The position numbers and the translations under genes were made by a program. Below, in pieces: positions 17,058-49,511 of a stretch of DNA of 64,000 nucleotides; positions within the stretch are counted from its first letter, which is position 1; the number at the start of each line of letters is the position of its first letter. Source of the DNA: Nitrosopumilaceae archaeon (lineage in GTDB: Archaea; Thermoproteota; Nitrososphaeria; Nitrososphaerales; Nitrosopumilaceae); NCBI GenBank assembly GCA_965214835.1, contig CBDCCK010000002.1, forward strand, positions 2,560,001-2,624,000. Reading direction: 5' to 3'. The notes below the pieces were generated by a model, which had not been told where the DNA came from, did not search any database, and saw nothing but the letters and a program-made list of their open reading frames with translations.

Positions 17058-17840
17058 CTATTCAATCACATTGGGTATTTCTTCTCTAATCTCAGACAAC
17101 ATTTTTGGAATGTTGATTGACTCGTTGATCAAACGTGTTAAACTGCGTAAATGTTCCTTCAAAACTTCTTCAATATCTTCAGGAAAGAATTGTCCGATGC
17201 CAGTAAATTTGACATTTTTTGTTTCACATTTTTTCAAAAAAAGATCTCCGACACCGTTCCAGATTTTGTTTTCTTTGAGCAATCGCCAGACATCATAGTA
17301 ATCCCTAATCTTTCTACGCTGGAGGATTGCTCTCAATTTTTCTGCCAGTATTGTTTCAAGTGAGTAAACGCTTACCGAGAATTTTGGATAGTCATAATAC
17401 TGTGGTACCGGCATTGCTACAATTTTGCCAATCTCCTCTTCGCGACTAATTTCAATTTTTAATCTAGCCGTGCTAATGGGCCCCGTATACTTGAACCTGC
17501 TTTGAAAATATCCCGGGTTTGTGTATGGTGATCCTTCAAGTTTTAACGCAATTTGGTTTTTTTGCATCACAATATTTGGTATTTCTTTTTCAATCGGCTT
17601 GACAAACTTTTCCCATGCTGTATTGCCTATGGGTGTGAAATCAAGATCTTCTGACAGCCTCCACTGGTTAGGAAAGTAGATCTTTGACAGGGCCGTACCT
17701 CCCTTGAAAACAAGCTTGTTAGAAATTGAACTGTTTGCAATGCCATAGAGCATCCATCCGAGAACATAGTCTTTTTCCACCGTGTCGACTCCGACTTTTA
17801 GCTCCACGGCCTTCTTCCTAAGTTCTTGATGTGAGATCAT
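17058..17840 (-). CDS. abiEii: AbiEii nucleotidyltransferase toxin (second system)
   Basis: VEKDYVL, FKGGTAL, RLSEDLDF, EKLRA..R..RDYYD. Confidence 0.92.
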   Translation of the reverse strand: MISHQELRKKAVELKVGVDTVEKDYVLGWMLYGIANSSISNKLVFKGGTALSKIYFPNQWRLSEDLDFTPIGNTAWEKFVKPIEKEIPNIVMQKNQIALKLEGSPYTNPGYFQSRFKYTGPISTARLKIEISREEEIGKIVAMPVPQYYDYPKFSVSVYSLETILAEKLRAILQRRKIRDYYDVWRLLKENKIWNGVGDLFLKKCETKNVKFTGIGQFFPEDIEEVLKEHLRSLTRLINESINIPKMLSEIREEIPNVIE

Positions 17841-18649
17841 TATTGCGTCCACCTGTCTGGATCAATTGTTGCATTGACAATCAGAGACCATTTTGTCTTT
17901 ATTTTGCCCCTTTTTGGAGAGAGTGGATCAAGCATGGAATATCCCTTTTTAACTTCTGCATTTTCCAAAACATTGAGACACTTATCAAGTCCCAGTACTT
18001 CGGAGATGTATCCAAGCCTTTTGACTACCGCGCCATTTCCAATCTTTACTGCCATCTTGGACAACGTTTCAAGCTTCAGCTCACTGGCAGAAAAATAAAG
18101 TGCCCTTGCAACCTCGTCAATGCCTCCCGCATGTTCCGGATGATCTAGGCAGTCTACGAATGTTTTTGCAGGCGTTGAGATGTTGACAGGCATGTTCTCA
18201 ACTGTGGTGATTGCGGCAACGCCAAACATTTTACGTGGAATTATTGTAACAAACTTGAATTCAACATTCAGTATTTTTCTAGAATTTCTTGGTTTTGGTG
18301 TGGCAATGTACACACAGGGCGGTGTCTGCTCTGTGAATCCGTAATGGTTGAGGGCGCTCCAATATCCGATGTAATATGGTTTTGCCAGCAGTGATCCTAT
18401 TACAAAGCTGTGAATGGTGTAACTGTCAGCTCCTTCCTCGCCTGCCTCAAATGGAGCTATAGCATAAACCCCCTTTCTTACTTTTAGAATCCATTTTTTT
18501 CTGACCAGCCAGTCTAGGACATTTTTTGGATTGCTTACTAGGTTCTTGACATCATCTAGCGTGAATATTGTCTTGTTTTTGTGACTGAGTCTTGCCAGAA
18601 CTCCCGCCTCCCTTTCCGACAATGTATGTCTGTATTTTTTTATGGGCAT
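17840..18649 (-). CDS. abiEi: AbiEi antitoxin (second system)
   Basis: LVRKKWI..VRKGVY, YIGYWSALNHYG, KTFVDCLDHP; TAATG coupling to the toxin. Confidence 0.9.
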   Translation of the reverse strand: MPIKKYRHTLSEREAGVLARLSHKNKTIFTLDDVKNLVSNPKNVLDWLVRKKWILKVRKGVYAIAPFEAGEEGADSYTIHSFVIGSLLAKPYYIGYWSALNHYGFTEQTPPCVYIATPKPRNSRKILNVEFKFVTIIPRKMFGVAAITTVENMPVNISTPAKTFVDCLDHPEHAGGIDEVARALYFSASELKLETLSKMAVKIGNGAVVKRLGYISEVLGLDKCLNVLENAEVKKGYSMLDPLSPKRGKIKTKWSLIVNATIDPDRWTQ

Positions 18650-18785
18650 TCGAACCATAACTCGAAAATCATTAAGAAAATATAGGTTTTTGGTGCTTAA
18701 AAGTATGACGGAAACCGGCTTGTTGCATAACCCCGATTTTAGGCACGAAAAACTGGCTGTTTTTACGCGTTCAGGCACGGTTATG

Positions 18786-20234
18786 CATCCATGGTAAAAC
18801 GCCCGCCAGTAACATGGCGACGTTCCTTTCGTCTTCTGATCCGTGCCTAGTCGGCCGGGCCGTGCTTTATAGCTAACGCTAGCAATACGCACGAGCCAGT
18901 CCTGTCGCACCTGCCGAGGTGCGGGCGGATCATTGGGTGGGTGGGTGGGGGATGGAAGGTGGCAATCCTATGCCGTTCCCACCAGTTCTGTCACCCTCTT
19001 GATCTTCCTGTCGTACAGGGCAGCATTGCGCGATGAATACACAGTCTTTGTCGTCAGCATGTGCCAGATTATCCTGAGCATCTTGTTTGCAACATGCGTT
19101 ATCGCTATGACGTGGTTGTTGCCGTTCCTTTTGCGGACCCTCTCGTAGAACTCCCTCATCCTGTCGTCGTGCTGTACGGCGACGTTGGCTATCTGGATCA
19201 TCAGCCAGTTGATCCTGCGGTTTGCATCCTTTTTCATGTGGCCGTGGTACTCGCGATCCCCCGACTGGTACACCCGGGGACACATGCCGGCCCAGGACAC
19301 AAGCTGGTTCGGCGATGGAAACCTGGTTATGTCACCGATCTCTGCTATCAGCAGCATTGCTGCAAAGGTGTCTATTCCCGTCATGCTCAACAGCAGCTTG
19401 GCATCCTCGTTCGATCCTGCCTGTCTTCCTATGTCCTCCCCTGCTTGGTCTATCTCCTCTGTGACGTGTACAATCCTCCTAGTGCAGCTTGCCAGTATCC
19501 TGTCATCGTTTGGCATGTTCAGCCTGGTATTGGAGATCTTCCGTATGGCCTTCTTGGAGTACATCGTGGATGCATCTATGGCTATGTCGTACTTGTCAAG
19601 CCAAGCTGTGCAGCCCGTTTATGACTGCGGTCCTCTCCTGCACCATCCGTATCCTGTACCTCATCAGCTCCCTGACATCCCTCAGCTCTGCTGATGCCAC
19701 GTAGCATCGTGGTATCATTCCGGCCCTGAGCGTTTCGGCTATCTTCCTTGCATCTATCGGGTCAGTCTTTACGCTGGTCTCTGATACTATCTTCATCTTG
19801 AGGGTGTTTGCAAGCAGTATGGGGATATGCTGATCCTCAAACGCCCTGAACGTCTTTAGCCACATGTTGCCCGTTGACTCGCACGCGGCCTGGCACTTTT
19901 TGTACTCTTTTTTCAGTCGTGCAGCAAGCTTTGATGCCTCCTTGTACGTGTTGTTATACGAGCCCTCCTCTAGCACGTGTCCCTTGGCGTCGATGACGCA
20001 CACTGCGCATTTTCTCTTTCCAATGTCTATTCCTATGCTTCTCAATCCTTTTCTTTCACCTCCTTTTGGATATGGTTTGACAGATCAGAAGCTGCATTCA
20101 TCCATCAGTGCGCGTAGCACAGGAACACAGCAGCTCGGATATCCCCATTCAACAGGTAGTGCGCGAAGCACATGCATAACGAGGGGTTGATCCATCACCC
20201 TGGCTACGGCGGGGGCGTTTTTATCATGTGTTCA
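18786..20234 (-). mobile_element. IS110-family element; recombinase at 18968-20045 with a single +1 frameshift near 19600
   Basis: GIDIGK, CESTG and KTDPIDA (DEDD), GMCPRVYQSG (catalytic Ser); CA core at both ends; subterminal IRs AAAACGCCC. Confidence 0.92.
20060..20215 (-). ncRNA. Putative IS110 bridge RNA (target-binding and donor-binding loops)
   Basis: Two stem/internal-loop/GTGC-N5-GCAC modules whose loop strands match the element's own target and donor junctions. Confidence 0.85.
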
Positions 20235-20251
20235 ACAGGCTAGGAAACCGT

Positions 20252-20629
20252 AGCTTGTTGCATAACTCCGACTAGAGCCCAGCCAATTCTTCCGGATCAC
20301 TACCGGCGCTCGGTTCCTACACGGCAGCCACCGCCTCTGCGATCCACTTGTTGTACAGCCATATCCTCAACTTTACCTCCTGCACTATATTGGACCACTT
20401 GAGGGCCTTTACGTCCTCGCCAAACATGCGCTTTATGGCCGATATCACGATCTCGACGATCCATCTGATGCCAAAGCCGACCGTGCTCTTCGGGTACCGC
20501 AGGTTCTCCTGCCTCTCCTCCTTTGATAGGCTGCCCACCGGCTCCTCGGGGCCGCCCCCGAGCTGCCATCGCACCAGCCGGCCCCACTTGTCGCCGCTGC
20601 CCAGGTGCATCTTGACAAATCCTCGCCTT
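20252..20629 (-). pseudogene. 3' fragment of an IS5-family transposase with its right TIR
   Basis: RWIVEIVISAIKRMFGE; TIR AGCTTGTTGCATAAC; truncated by IS3. Confidence 0.75.
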
Positions 20630-21890
20630 TGGTGCGGACCCCAAAAAAAAGAAGGAACGATCTGCAATGCACACTTTTTTAGTTCGGAGGTCGAATCACA
20701 GATATGACCAAGAAAACATGGAGTACGCAGGACAAGATAGGGATAGTCATGGAGCACTTAAACACCAACATCGAAACGGCAGATCTATGCCGCCGCCACA
20801 ACCTCTCCCCCAAGACGTTTTACCAGTGGAGGAAACGCTTTTTGCAGGGCGGACGCGCATCGCTGTCAGGCAGCGGCCCTGCAACGGCCGAAGGCAGACT
20901 CCAAAAGGAGAACGAGTCGCTCAAGCACATCATCGGCGAGTATGCCATAGCCAATGCGCTTTTAAAAAAAACCTTGGAGGCAGGCAAAAGGTGAACATTG
21001 CAATACTGCTAAGGGAGAGGGGCTGGAGCATGGACAAGACCCTGCAGTACAGCGGCGCCTCCAGAACTGCGTGGTACCACGTAAAAAAGCCGCAAAGACA
21101 GACAGAACCGGATCCGCAGACGGTCTCATTTGTCAGGGAGATCGGCAACAAGAGGCCCACATACGGCACGCGCCGCATGGCAGCCCAGATAAGTCGCGAG
21201 ACCGGCGTGCCGACAAACCGCAAAAGGATACAGCAGATATGCCGCAAAATAGGCTGGATCACGCCTAAAAAGACCAAAAACGACATAATAAGAGCAGGAA
21301 AAAGAGACAGGTTCAAGCCCACAGGGCCAAACCAGCTGTGGGAGACGGACATTACATACGTCTGGTGCGGTATAGACGGGTGGTGCTACTGCTTTAACGT
21401 AATCGATACGTTCACCAGGAAGTGGATAACATACGTCTTTGCCACGCAGGCCACCGCACAGGTCGCAGTCGAATCGCTGACAAGAGCAGTCTCCACGATT
21501 TCGGCAGACGAGGCAAGAGGACTGCTGGTCAGAAGTGACAATGGGACCCAGTACACGAGCCGCGAATTCAAGGAGAGTATGAAGATCCTGGGAGTCCGGT
21601 GTGAGTACATCTGGCACAACACACCCGAGCAGAACGGACATGTCGAGTCCTTCCACAAGACCCTCAAAAAGGAGTACGTCTGGCCACATGACTTTGCCAG
21701 GTTCCAGGATGCCGAGGCCGTCCTGGCAGAGGCGTTTGCAGATTACAACAAAGACAGGATCCACTCGGCACTGGGATACCTGACGCCGGACGAGTTTGTC
21801 CGGAAAATGCAGGAGGTGCCACAAAAATGAGCGATCAGAGCGTGCGTAAAATATCGCAAAAAGCGTTCCTATTTTATGGGGTCCACTCCA
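20630..21890 (+). mobile_element. IS3-family element, orfA 20704-20994 and orfB to 21830, with a -1 frameshift site
   Basis: TG...CA TIRs (TGGWGYGGACCCCA); slippery TTTAAAAAAAA; WETDITY, SDNGTQY and NGHVESF integrase core; solo right TIR also at 60761-60785. Confidence 0.93.
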
Positions 21891-27583: not shown

Positions 27584-27705
27584 CAGTCTTCCCAAATGTA
27601 CCTGACTCATCGCGGTGCAGGCGTCCACATGCGGATCTGCAGGCAGCTTGGTTTGAACTGTTTCGAGTTTTAGAATCGCTTTGTGGATTACTTCTGGGAA
27701 GACTG
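27584..27705. mobile_element. MITE family 1 (about 120 bp, TIR CAGTCTTCCCA, 5-bp TSD); copies at 36900-37018, 48997-49114 and 49787-49907; single ends at 5291 and 46817
   Basis: TSDs TACTC, GCTCT and CAGAG flank three copies exactly. Confidence 0.88.
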
Positions 27706-48674: not shown

Positions 48675-49511
48675 CGGATTCCCTTGGCCGCCGATGGTTA
48701 ATCAGTGTTTGTCGCCTTGGGAGGGGGCAGGGCATCCGGATGCCATCATCATTGCAGCCGCACCGGCAAAAAATACACGGATGCTCTCAAAAAGGAACAC
48801 AGATCACATGGATTCCACCATCAGACTGACCGACGTTTCCGTCGGCTCGGCCTCTCAAAATGGAACACAGATCACATGGACTCCATCCGGTTATTTCCTG
48901 CAGCCCAGCTTGCAGGAGCTACCGAAAACCCATGATGTGGGATTGCCTCTTTCAGTAATCCTGCAGCGTCATGCCAAATAAATCCACATCTGCTCTCAGT
49001 CTTCCCAGTACCGCATCAAATCATCCCCGGCTCGAAACAATTCAGATGAGGCTGCCTGCAGATCCGCATGTTACCTCCTGTACCGCCACGAGTCGGTTAC
49101 TTCTGGGAAGGCTGGCTCTCAACAACTGGCAGTTTCCTTCACTTGGCTTCCATGCTCTTGAACCCCAAATTGTCGGATCGAGACGAGGTTGTCGCGTAAT
49201 TCTACCTATCTGACTCAATCTGTACGTTTTTCTGAACTTCTGCCCCTCTTGCACGCCTCGGTCCAGATGACATCGTATGGTTTTCAGGAGTTCTGATGAA
49301 TTACGCGACAACCTCGATCGAGACACATTTTGATCACCGCATTTGAGGCAGCACATGACAAGTATGATCACCTGCACCCGCCAATCAGGCACGAATCGGC
49401 ATGTGCAATTATGGTTTCCATGCATGGCCAGCATTGGATATGACCCCATACTGTTACGTATCATGGATTTTCGACTCCTGTCTTGCAGTGCCAGGATGTC
49501 TCCTATGCACG

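Follow-up and report, generated by a model that had tools for sequence, protein, structure and literature searches.

A probable RNA-guided insertion sequence of the IS110 superfamily in a Nitrosopumilaceae archaeon, with guides retargeted naturally to several repeat families

The stretch of DNA analysed here (the window) consists of 64,000 nucleotides (nt) from a Nitrosopumilaceae archaeon (GenBank assembly GCA_965214835.1, contig CBDCCK010000002.1, positions 2,560,001 to 2,624,000). Its minus strand carries an insertion sequence of the IS110 superfamily, made up of a recombinase gene that is split into two open reading frames (ORFs), a left end upstream of the gene that holds a structured RNA on the same strand, and a right end which is also long and conserved but has no guide loops. 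Both non-coding ends are long (approximately 187 and 182 nt). We consider it very probable that the element moves by RNA-guided site-specific recombination, a mechanism suggested by homology and by natural covariation. An earlier note, made from the letters alone, had proposed an archaeal IS110 element with a two-loop bridge RNA, and on re-reading both strands all the letters and positions of its junction and loop strings are correct. The host is indeed archaeal: the archaeal small-subunit (SSU) ribosomal RNA model matches over its full length with 1452.6 bits, and the archaeal SSU and large-subunit models win the clan competition at the ribosomal RNA locus. The two protein domains match PF01548 and PF02371. 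The features are collected in Table 1.

Table 1. Features of the element and its insertion site, in window coordinates; sequences are given in the sense of the element.
Feature	Position	Strand	Basis
IS110-superfamily element, body (1,445 bp)	18788..20232	-	filled versus empty paralogous sites
Core TG (CA on the plus strand), right junction	18786..18787	-	strings read
Core TG, left junction	20233..20234	-	strings read
Target right half CATAAC	18780..18785	-	same CATAAC continuation after CCTGTTG at uninterrupted paralogous sites
Target left half AGCCTGT, outer tip of the interrupted terminal repeat	20235..20241	-	paralogous sites
Left subterminal inverted repeat ATGATAAAAACGCCCCCGCC, with AACAC before it	20208..20227	-	read from sequence
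Right subterminal inverted repeat GGCGGGCGTTTTACCAT, followed by the 3-bp extension GGA (18790-18788)	18791..18807	-	imperfect inverse of 20227-20208
Motif ACGGATCAGAAG of the right end, complement of the RNA basal helix (3' strand)	18833..18844	-	12-nt repeat, 92%
Candidate archaeal promoter directed towards the right end, TATAAA within the conserved box GCTAGCGTTAGCTATAAAG	18866..18871	-	conservation in 5 genera; function putative
Bridge/seek RNA core	20080..20194	-	covariance model and alignment
Loop 1, 5' guide GTTATGCA	20173..20180	-	sequence; test of 5' guide against 3' flank
Loop 1, 3' guide CCTGTTG	20150..20156	-	identical to left target and core
Loop 2, 5' guide TGTGTTCC, pairs with left end GAACACA	20122..20129	-	final base mismatched to core
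Loop 2, 3' guide ATGGATG	20099..20105	-	identical to right end and core
Ribosome-binding site GGAGGTG, upstream of the 149-aa ORF	20063-20057	-	
Upstream ORF, 149 aa, TTG start, RuvC-like DEDD domain	19596..20045	-	PF01548 DEDD_Tnp_IS110, 1.2e-28
GG with one extra G that shifts the frame (..AGC TTG GCT TGA C..; site AGCTTGGCTTGAC)	19601..19602	-	copy alignment, read-through
Downstream ORF, 198 aa from an internal ATG, Tnp domain with YQSGD serine motif	18968..19564	-	PF02371 Transposase_20, 1.6e-26

The boundaries of the element are fixed to the base by paralogous empty sites, which read tagCCTGTTGCATAACcgtgcc... Filled and empty sites differ by the element and exactly one TG, so that the element together with one core occupies window positions 18788-20234 of the minus strand, a total of 1,447 bp. 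The first base is the A at 20232 (AACACATGATAAAA...) and the final base the A at 18788 (...TTTTACCATGGA). On the plus strand the two junctions read GTTATGCATCCAT (18780-18792) and TGTGTTCAACAGG (20227-20239); the empty target with a CA core (TG in the sense of the element) that had been deduced from them agrees with the paralogous empty sites. The left end is preceded by TG in 44 of the 45 insertions tabulated, the exception being TA at L029, and TG closes every right end that was located. In the copies of class A (the classes are defined below by loop 1), ...CTGTTG precedes AACACA and CATAAC succeeds GGATG, with divergence beyond. Their 3' continuations belong to a few repeated types, and uninterrupted repeats read tagCCTGTTGCATAAC followed by the identical continuation; insertion therefore adds the element and one TG, with no target duplication. 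The possibility that the conserved flanks are part of the element is ruled out by the empty sites. The right half of the target is itself part of the terminal repeat of a small repeat bounded by terminal inverted repeats.

The ends carry a subterminal inverted repeat, 17–20 bp long in the window copy; in the class C paralogue it is perfect over 18 bp. At the left, the window copy reads TG-AACAC and then ATGATAAAAACGCC..., which gives a 7-bp extension including the core; at the right it reads ...GGCGTTTTACCAT and then GGA.

The element is one of a family. There are 44 matches to the 1,462-nt stretch in its own genome (3.2 Mb), among them six further full-length copies at different loci with 98–99% identity, one interrupted copy, one 5'-truncated copy and many short pieces. 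Diverged lineages are found in the same genome at 92%, 85–89% and approximately 65% identity.

The basal helix of the RNA (20194-20188 with 20087-20081) encloses a target-binding hairpin (20186-20143) and a donor-binding hairpin (20135-20090). RNAalifold, run on 16 sequences, gives this basal helix around two hairpins, with the guides in each internal loop and with compensatory changes. In an alignment of 48 rows, 92.3% of the cells are paired, as against 30–52% when the partners are slid; double changes are seen at 22 of the 32 pairs, and none of 500 shuffles reaches any of the five measures used. A covariance model of the RNA has matches in 11 of the 61 genomes of the family, in six genera, and in all six the matches adjoin recombinase homologues. 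Covariation thus supports the two-loop RNA upstream of the recombinase that the earlier note had drawn. When three haloarchaeal IS110 loci were searched with this model, filters off, the best hit had 14.2 bits (E = 0.0038) and lay inside the coding region, and is not a match. The strings GUGAUGG...CUGA at the base of the RNA were also considered as a C/D box or kink turn (K-turn) and rejected: GUGAUGG is absent in G010 (CAGUGG) and in class C (GACGUGG), while CUGA varies to CCGA or UUGA with Watson-Crick compensation, and no conserved K-turn was found.

Read on the minus strand, loop 1 is CCCC-TC-GTTATGCA-T-GTGC-TTCGC-GCAC-TA-CCTGTTG-AAT-GGGG and loop 2 is AGCTGC-TGTGTTC-CT-GTGC-TACGC-GCAC-TG-ATGGATG-AAT-GCAGCT. 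Loop 1 contains the reverse complement of the 3' flank and core (TG-CATAAC) as well as the 5' flank and core themselves (CCTGT-TG); the latter guide, being identical to the left target and core, would pair with the bottom strand. Loop 2 contains the right end with its core (ATGGA-TG) and a string complementary to the left end (GAACACA) apart from one mismatch, at the core position. The assignment of loop 1 to the target and of loop 2 to the donor junction, core mismatch included, therefore stands, since the strings match the flanks and the ends. The 3' guide of loop 2 has the variants ATGGATG, ATAGATG and ATAGGTG, each of which equals the right end of its own element. At the other end, G019 has the left end AAGACA paired with the guide TGTCT, and elsewhere ACACA tracks TGTGT. 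This donor-end matching is backed by few independent changes.

The target can be read from loop 1 alone, by taking the 3' guide and joining to it, with TG as the overlap, the 5' guide in reverse complement. On this basis the genome contains at least four classes of loop 1, and the 13-mers that they predict are abundant. That of class A, CCTGTTGCATAAC, occurs four times exactly and 30 times with at most one mismatch; class B, GTAGTTGAAAATG, has 23 exact occurrences and class C, ACTTCTGGGAAGA, has 61; class D, GAGGTTGTCGCGT, has two, and 24 with at most one mismatch, mostly GAGGTTGTCGCCTAATTC. The count expected by chance for a 13-mer is approximately 0.1 (both strands of 3.2 Mb, our own arithmetic). 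The predicted 13-mers lie at a constant distance (7–10 bp) from the onset of variable flanks, and are thus the tips of repeat families. The ORFs next to the predicted sites belong to a DDE_Tnp_1 element in classes A and B and to an IS66-type element in class C; in class D, the neighbour of the site examined is a TPR gene. What is targeted is the outermost 13–15 bp of a terminal repeat belonging to another mobile element, and loop 1 has been retargeted naturally to at least four such families. The bacterial IS1111-type elements IS4321 and IS5075 have as their target the terminal inverted repeat of Tn21-type transposons. Each of these is confined to a single target family, whereas here the tips of at least four families are used within one genome.

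The agreement between guides and flanks was tabulated for the 48 aligned matches to the RNA model. The test of the 3' guide used 42 of the 48, together with x1, x2 and x4. L012 was left out because of a 2-nt deletion in the guide, L066 because its flank is cut by the contig end, and L069, L072, L081 and L087 because their register is uncertain; for L074 and L083, in which the left end lacks 8 nt, the flank was taken as the 7 nt before GAAAAAC, a choice that favours a match. Among these 45 insertions, the 3' guide agrees with the 5' flank at all five non-core positions in 23, at four in 13, at three in 3, at two in 5 and at one in 1. Grouped into 25 guide classes from nine genomes, the agreement is 96 of 125 positions, compared with 42.6 ± 5.5 in shuffles (maximum 69), none of 100,000 reaching 96. 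The test of the 5' guide against the 3' flank was limited to the 28 copies with a placeable right end: six of six positions agree in 10 copies, five in 5, four in 6, and three or fewer in 7. Over 12 classes this amounts to 39.3 of 72 positions against 22.6 ± 4.1, a value reached by 20 of 100,000 shuffles and thus weaker than for the 3' guide. Covariation of guide and flank among homologues had been suggested earlier as a check, and it is found on both sides of the loop.

On the basis of these observations we hypothesise the following mechanism. The left end would encode a structured RNA of approximately 115–150 nt, with a basal helix and two hairpins that have internal loops. The two sides of loop 1 would pair with opposite strands of the 13-bp target CCTGT-TG-CATAAC, which is found 9–10 bp into the terminal repeat that an IS5-type element shares with its miniature derivatives, and the two sides of loop 2 would pair likewise with the joined ends of the element, ATGGA-TG-AACACA. 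The DEDD/serine recombinase would hold the RNA and, by homology with IS621 and ISCro4, would unite the circularised element with the target, with strand exchange at the shared TG core and no target duplication. Production and binding of the RNA, formation of the circle and the chemistry are thus what the homology leads us to expect. The natural retargeting suggests in addition that the element would be programmable.

A number of observations weigh against this mechanism. In 6 of the 45 insertions, the 5' flank matches at two or fewer of the five positions, and the copies whose 3' flank matches at three or fewer of six are L009, L012, L017, L023, L026, L063 and L070 (7 of 28). Most of the misfits (L009, L012, L016, L017, L023, L063) agree with loop 1 in the 5' flank but have the 3' flank of a different target class, or of no class at all, which looks like the outcome of rearrangement, or of recombination between copies inserted at different places. 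The stretch of the 5' guide that should face the core TG does not complement it in G067 or in G004. Targets predicted likewise in other genomes are not clearly multicopy: G085 has one exact and five one-mismatch sites, against two for the control, and G010 and G004 have none, although four sites in G001 with one mismatch have the same sequence as the actual flanks in G004. The 48-row alignment used to assess pairing had been fitted to the RNA model. The fold of the single copy is not more stable than shuffles (z = -0.38), so that the structural support is covariation and not energy; the folding proposed in the earlier note thus fails on single-sequence energy and succeeds as a consensus with compensatory changes. 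A search of Rfam over 18000-21000, with E values up to 10, returned nothing relevant. Among 18 runs considered, none of RNA covers the locus. Contigs from four runs over 18000-21000 include no joint between right end and left end, and none that skips the element; the loose contig ends at 18787 continue with ACAGGCTA..., the uninterrupted tip of the repeat, and probably come from paralogous sites. Finally, of 14 copies that have both the RNA and homology to the recombinase, a single one keeps its frame uninterrupted.

This last point leads to the recombinase itself. When one base is skipped at 19601-19602, the two ORFs join into a protein of 358 aa, with 83.8% identity to the intact paralogue; the frame of the downstream ORF is open back to approximately 19600. 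The motifs IGID, CEST, KTDPIDA and YQSGD are all present in the window copy, in agreement with the earlier claim that the DEDD residues and the QSG serine are intact, these being what we take to be the catalytic residues. The intact paralogue can be aligned across both domains with ISCro4 (9t56, 4.2e-9) and IS621 (8wt6, 9.2e-9). The best plasmid matches are haloarchaeal IS110-family genes with 31–35% identity, the annotated names of which are uninformative as to the IS110 or IS1111 subgroup. Relatives of the recombinase were found in 16 of 61 related genomes. A search of the genome contigs with the intact protein gave 80 pattern matches, none of which was confirmed.

It had been proposed that removal of one G near 19600 would restore a single ORF of about 359 aa. 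The frame is indeed restored, to 358 aa, but the extra G is not peculiar to this copy, being common to 11 of 12 aligned copies (the window copy, L002-L009, L011 and L012). All class A copies, L009 and L012 read CAGCTTGGCTTGAC, and L010, from which the extra G is absent, reads CAGCCT-GCTTGAC. L010 is the sole copy with an uninterrupted frame (378 aa), and both its flanks are exactly as its own loop predicts.

One explanation for such a widespread interruption is that the frameshifted gene is functional, either through a programmed +1 shift at GCU-UGA-C or as two polypeptides, which would make the window copy autonomous. We regard this as possible, though on balance unlikely. The copies that share the extra G include lineages separated by a synonymous divergence (dS) of 0.14–0.32, and between frameshifted lineages the ratio of non-synonymous to synonymous divergence (dN/dS) is 0.18–0.34 in both halves of the gene. 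Among the variant codons of class A, 15 are synonymous and 21 non-synonymous, where the neutral expectation is approximately 8 and 28 (our own arithmetic). The low dN/dS and these counts together argue for continued selection on both halves, and of the 10 copies with the frameshift that were examined, 7 keep both halves open. The arrangement of a shift-prone site followed by an in-frame UGA is also, we presume, reminiscent of known +1 sites. Against this, the frame is uninterrupted not only in the paralogue L010 but also in the relatives from two other genomes, G010 with 377 aa and G004 with 366 aa. L009 seems to be chimeric, with 24 differences at the left end and 8 at the right end, so that gene conversion may have spread the extra G and inflated the apparent selection. 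The ratio for the downstream ORF within class A is 0.68, GCU-to-CUU slippage is poor, and no ribosome-binding site is evident upstream of the internal ATG. A supply in trans clearly works for the derivatives without a recombinase, described below, which have to be mobilised in that way. We incline, by a little, to the view that the window copy was moved by recombinase supplied in trans from the intact paralogue, using its own RNA.

The right end poses a second question. Across five genera it contains a box, (C)YAGCGnTAGCTATAAA, then a spacer of 22–24 nt, then (C)TAGGCRYGGATC; the motif GGATCAGAAG is found 57–59 nt from the end, and the spacer between the box and GGATC is fixed in length and free in sequence. 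The sequence of the motif complements that of the 3' strand (20080-20091) in the RNA's basal helix. It may be noted that box and motif (18833-18871) are in the same place in L010, L017, L063, L064, L065 and L066.

This arrangement would be explained if the complete RNA were made only from the excised circle, where a TATA promoter and, directly behind its start site, the true 5' strand of the closing helix would be brought from the right end in front of the left end and transcription would run across the junction of the two. The transcript would then cross the inverted-repeat hairpin followed by both guide hairpins, and in the integrated element the RNA gene would be split by the element's own ends. 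We think this rather unlikely, despite several observations that point to it. The 10–12 nt after the spacer can pair with the basal helix's 3' strand in each of the 13 elements compared, and where the sequence differs, in class C (GAGAGA / TCTCTG), G067 (CGGAA / TTCCG) and G085 (CAAAA / TTTTG), the changes on the two sides compensate each other. The duplex predicted with the right end beats the left-end alternative in 13 of 14 elements, junction transcripts assembled in silico are closed by the right-end helix in 10 of 11 folds, and the derivatives without a recombinase retain approximately 200 nt of right end. On the other side, the left end has a GGATCA strand of its own which pairs nearly as well (8–10 bp) and an A-rich box of its own at equal spacing, and a run of T4–T5 between the motif and the right end could halt the archaeal polymerase. 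G010 and G004 each have one mismatch in the helix, the TATA box is decayed in the short derivatives, and an inverted repeat that is bound by protein at the DNA level could give the same pattern. It is more speculative still, and in our view improbable, that the guide-RNA gene is split by the ends of the element, so that the complete RNA, and with it efficient expression of the recombinase, would arise only after circularisation, with the conserved +1 frameshift as a second brake. If true, this would be the archaeal counterpart, with the promoter in one piece, of the bacterial junction promoter, and the RNA could switch ends in the evolution of IS110 and IS1111 elements by a shift of the recombination site around the circle.

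Two further readings have very little to recommend them. The target could in principle be chosen by the protein alone, with the loop matches as by-products, either relics of old junctions or part of a regulatory RNA, as the imperfect 3' flanks of 7 of the 28 copies might suggest; this is highly improbable, because the guides vary jointly with the flanks over the 25 classes and nine genomes while RNA scaffold and protein remain similar, because class A and class B have scaffolds that are near-identical outside the guides and yet occupy different repeat families, and because the use of RNA is proven for homologous bacterial enzymes in the parts of the two reports available to us (PMC11208160, PMC11187229). 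Transcription of the RNA from the plus strand is equally hard to credit: both hairpins are near-palindromic and could therefore fold on that strand too, but G-U pairs in the sense of the gene are frequent (at one pair 25 of 41 rows have GU, at a second pair 19 have UG) and would become A-C mismatches on the other strand, so that they fit the gene sense only, and the guides would then pair with strands directed towards the core, unlike those of IS621 or IS1111 RNAs.

An RNA encoded on the strand of the gene and guiding the recombinase to its target remains the reading that we prefer. The genome has 29 matches to the RNA model, 14 with recombinase homology downstream and 15 without. Several of the elements without a recombinase are approximately 370 bp long and consist of the RNA region, with guides of its own, joined to approximately 200 nt of right end (L016, L019, L021, L023 and L026, at G000:C2 639982, 2955995, 10101, 3124529 and 2139570). 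In some of them the loop-1 guides are absent from the full-length copies, for example ACGCGACA / GAGGTTG. In L074 and L083 (G010:C1, near 1328218 and 1542291), the first 8 nt of the left end (AACACATG) are missing; the TG that comes next serves as the junction, and the flanks there agree with loop 1 nonetheless. The two copies lie in the same small repeat bounded by terminal inverted repeats, and may have spread as its passenger.

The surroundings of the window copy are a nest of mobile elements. Before insertion, the target (18717-18785 with 20233-20241) was a repeat of approximately 77 bp with the inverted termini AGCCTGTTGCATAAC ... GTTATGCAACAAGC, like a miniature IS5-type derivative. A second terminus GTTATGCAACAAGC at 20253-20266, only 11 bp from the left junction and in the opposite orientation, is unoccupied. 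Also unoccupied are four exact class C targets in the window (ACTTCTGGGAAGA, at IS66-type ends, near 27690, 37004, 46820 and 49892; G000:C2 2587689, 2597003, 2606819 and 2609891) and one exact class D target (GAGGTTGTCGCGT, near 49185). Elsewhere, on the minus strand at G000:C2:477403, the IS5-type terminus TAGCTTGTTGCATAAC truncates a left-end fragment, which has a flank of class B, after approximately 36 nt, so that the element family and the IS5-type element evidently insert into each other. Downstream of the element, the ORF at 17840-18640 (minus strand) matches domains of the AbiEi antitoxin (PF09407, 1.4e-13; PF13338, 7.5e-6). A 146-aa ORF at 20317-20757 (minus strand), beside the IS5-type terminus, has no Pfam match and is interrupted by an element with a 387-aa ORF (20667-21830, plus strand).

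The comparison with known systems draws on those parts of the published reports that were available to us. The element shares with IS621 and ISCro4 the DEDD RuvC-like and Tnp (serine) domains, a left end whose RNA lies on the strand of the gene, upstream of it, two hairpins with internal loops of which the first binds the target and the second the donor, the pairing of either side of a loop with the strand whose 5'-to-3' direction leads away from a 2-nt core, and insertion into repeats without target duplication (PMC11208160). It differs from them in its core, which is TG and not CT, in its subterminal inverted repeat of 17–20 bp, which in IS621-like elements is absent or 2–3 bp long, and in the order of the guides (PMC11208160). 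In IS621 that order is the opposite one and the left donor lies in the right end, whereas here the 5' side of the loop pairs with the top strand to the right of the core and the 3' side with the bottom strand to the left (PMC11208160). Long non-coding ends on both sides also set the window element apart, the similarity between the proteins is only at the level of E ~1e-8, and in an archaeon no sigma-70 junction promoter is to be expected. The likeness to IS621 that had been proposed thus holds for the position of the RNA, its two loops and the protein domains; ends and guide order are those of IS1111-type elements, so that IS621 is not the closest model. The match with IS621 had worked because target and donor were read on the plus strand, and turning both DNAs by 180° leaves the chemistry unchanged.

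IS1111-type elements have seekRNAs with the guides in this reversed order, and subterminal inverted repeats with extensions of 7 and 3 bp (Siddiquee et al., PMC11187229). The window element has the same extensions as ISEc11, ISKpn4 and ISPa11, namely 7 bp at the left (including the core) and 3 bp at the right, and repeats within the range given for the group, approximately 11–13 bp or more (PMC11187229). The guide order, orientation-specific insertion without duplication and natural reprogramming among relatives are also held in common (PMC11187229). The RNA of IS1111-type elements, in contrast, is downstream of the gene (PMC11187229), and in many of them the donor guides are in a multi-loop, where the window element has a plain internal loop (PMC11208160). 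As judged from the sequence, the layout is therefore a hybrid, with ends and guide order of IS1111 type and RNA position and loops of IS621 type. Named exceptions among published elements come close to it: ISMtsp17, which has an upstream region and falls in the IS1111 cluster, and ISHvo10 and ISAcp5, which have long non-coding regions on both sides (PMC11187229). The resemblance to these three, in a mixed layout or in two long ends, is one of description alone, and the parts of the report available to us mention neither RNA nor guides for them; ISHvo10 bears a haloarchaeal name (PMC11187229). The best plasmid matches of the recombinase are haloarchaeal as well. The derivatives have a parallel in ssr9 of ISPpu9, a module without a recombinase that rides on an IS110-family enzyme in trans (PMC12288879). 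The difference is that ssr9 is a downstream small-RNA gene which is dispensable for transposition, whereas our derivatives keep the whole guide RNA and the right end (PMC12288879). We did not find the element family in the portions of these reports available to us; the ortholog tables of PMC11208160, Supplementary Fig. 2 of PMC11187229, and the 86 models with which a 2026 preprint predicted 32,190 bridge RNAs (10.64898/2026.10.21.760802) may contain it.

The principle is not new, since archaeal IS110 and IS1111 members and thousands of predicted bridge RNAs have already been published. The new parts are the layout, the radiation of guides within one genome, the derivatives with RNA only, the conserved frameshift and the right-end motif. 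Tools for writing genomes are under development from RNA-guided recombinases and, to our knowledge, those tested are all bacterial; the present element offers an archaeal pair of enzyme and RNA, with a compact two-loop RNA. Because near-identical scaffolds carry different loop-1 guides, each in the tip of another repeat family, the genome amounts to a natural experiment in retargeting, and provides ready-made pairs of guide and target for a swap assay. The hybrid layout bears on the relation between the IS110 and IS1111 subgroups and on how donor ends are recognised, and the short derivatives, made of RNA and ends, suggest that guide RNAs can spread as parasites of a recombinase. It has also been proposed that archaeal Nop5 and the C/D ribonucleoproteins descend from IS110 recombinases, according to the part of that preprint available to us, and an archaeal IS110 RNA would be relevant to this idea (bioRxiv 2024.06.21.599552).

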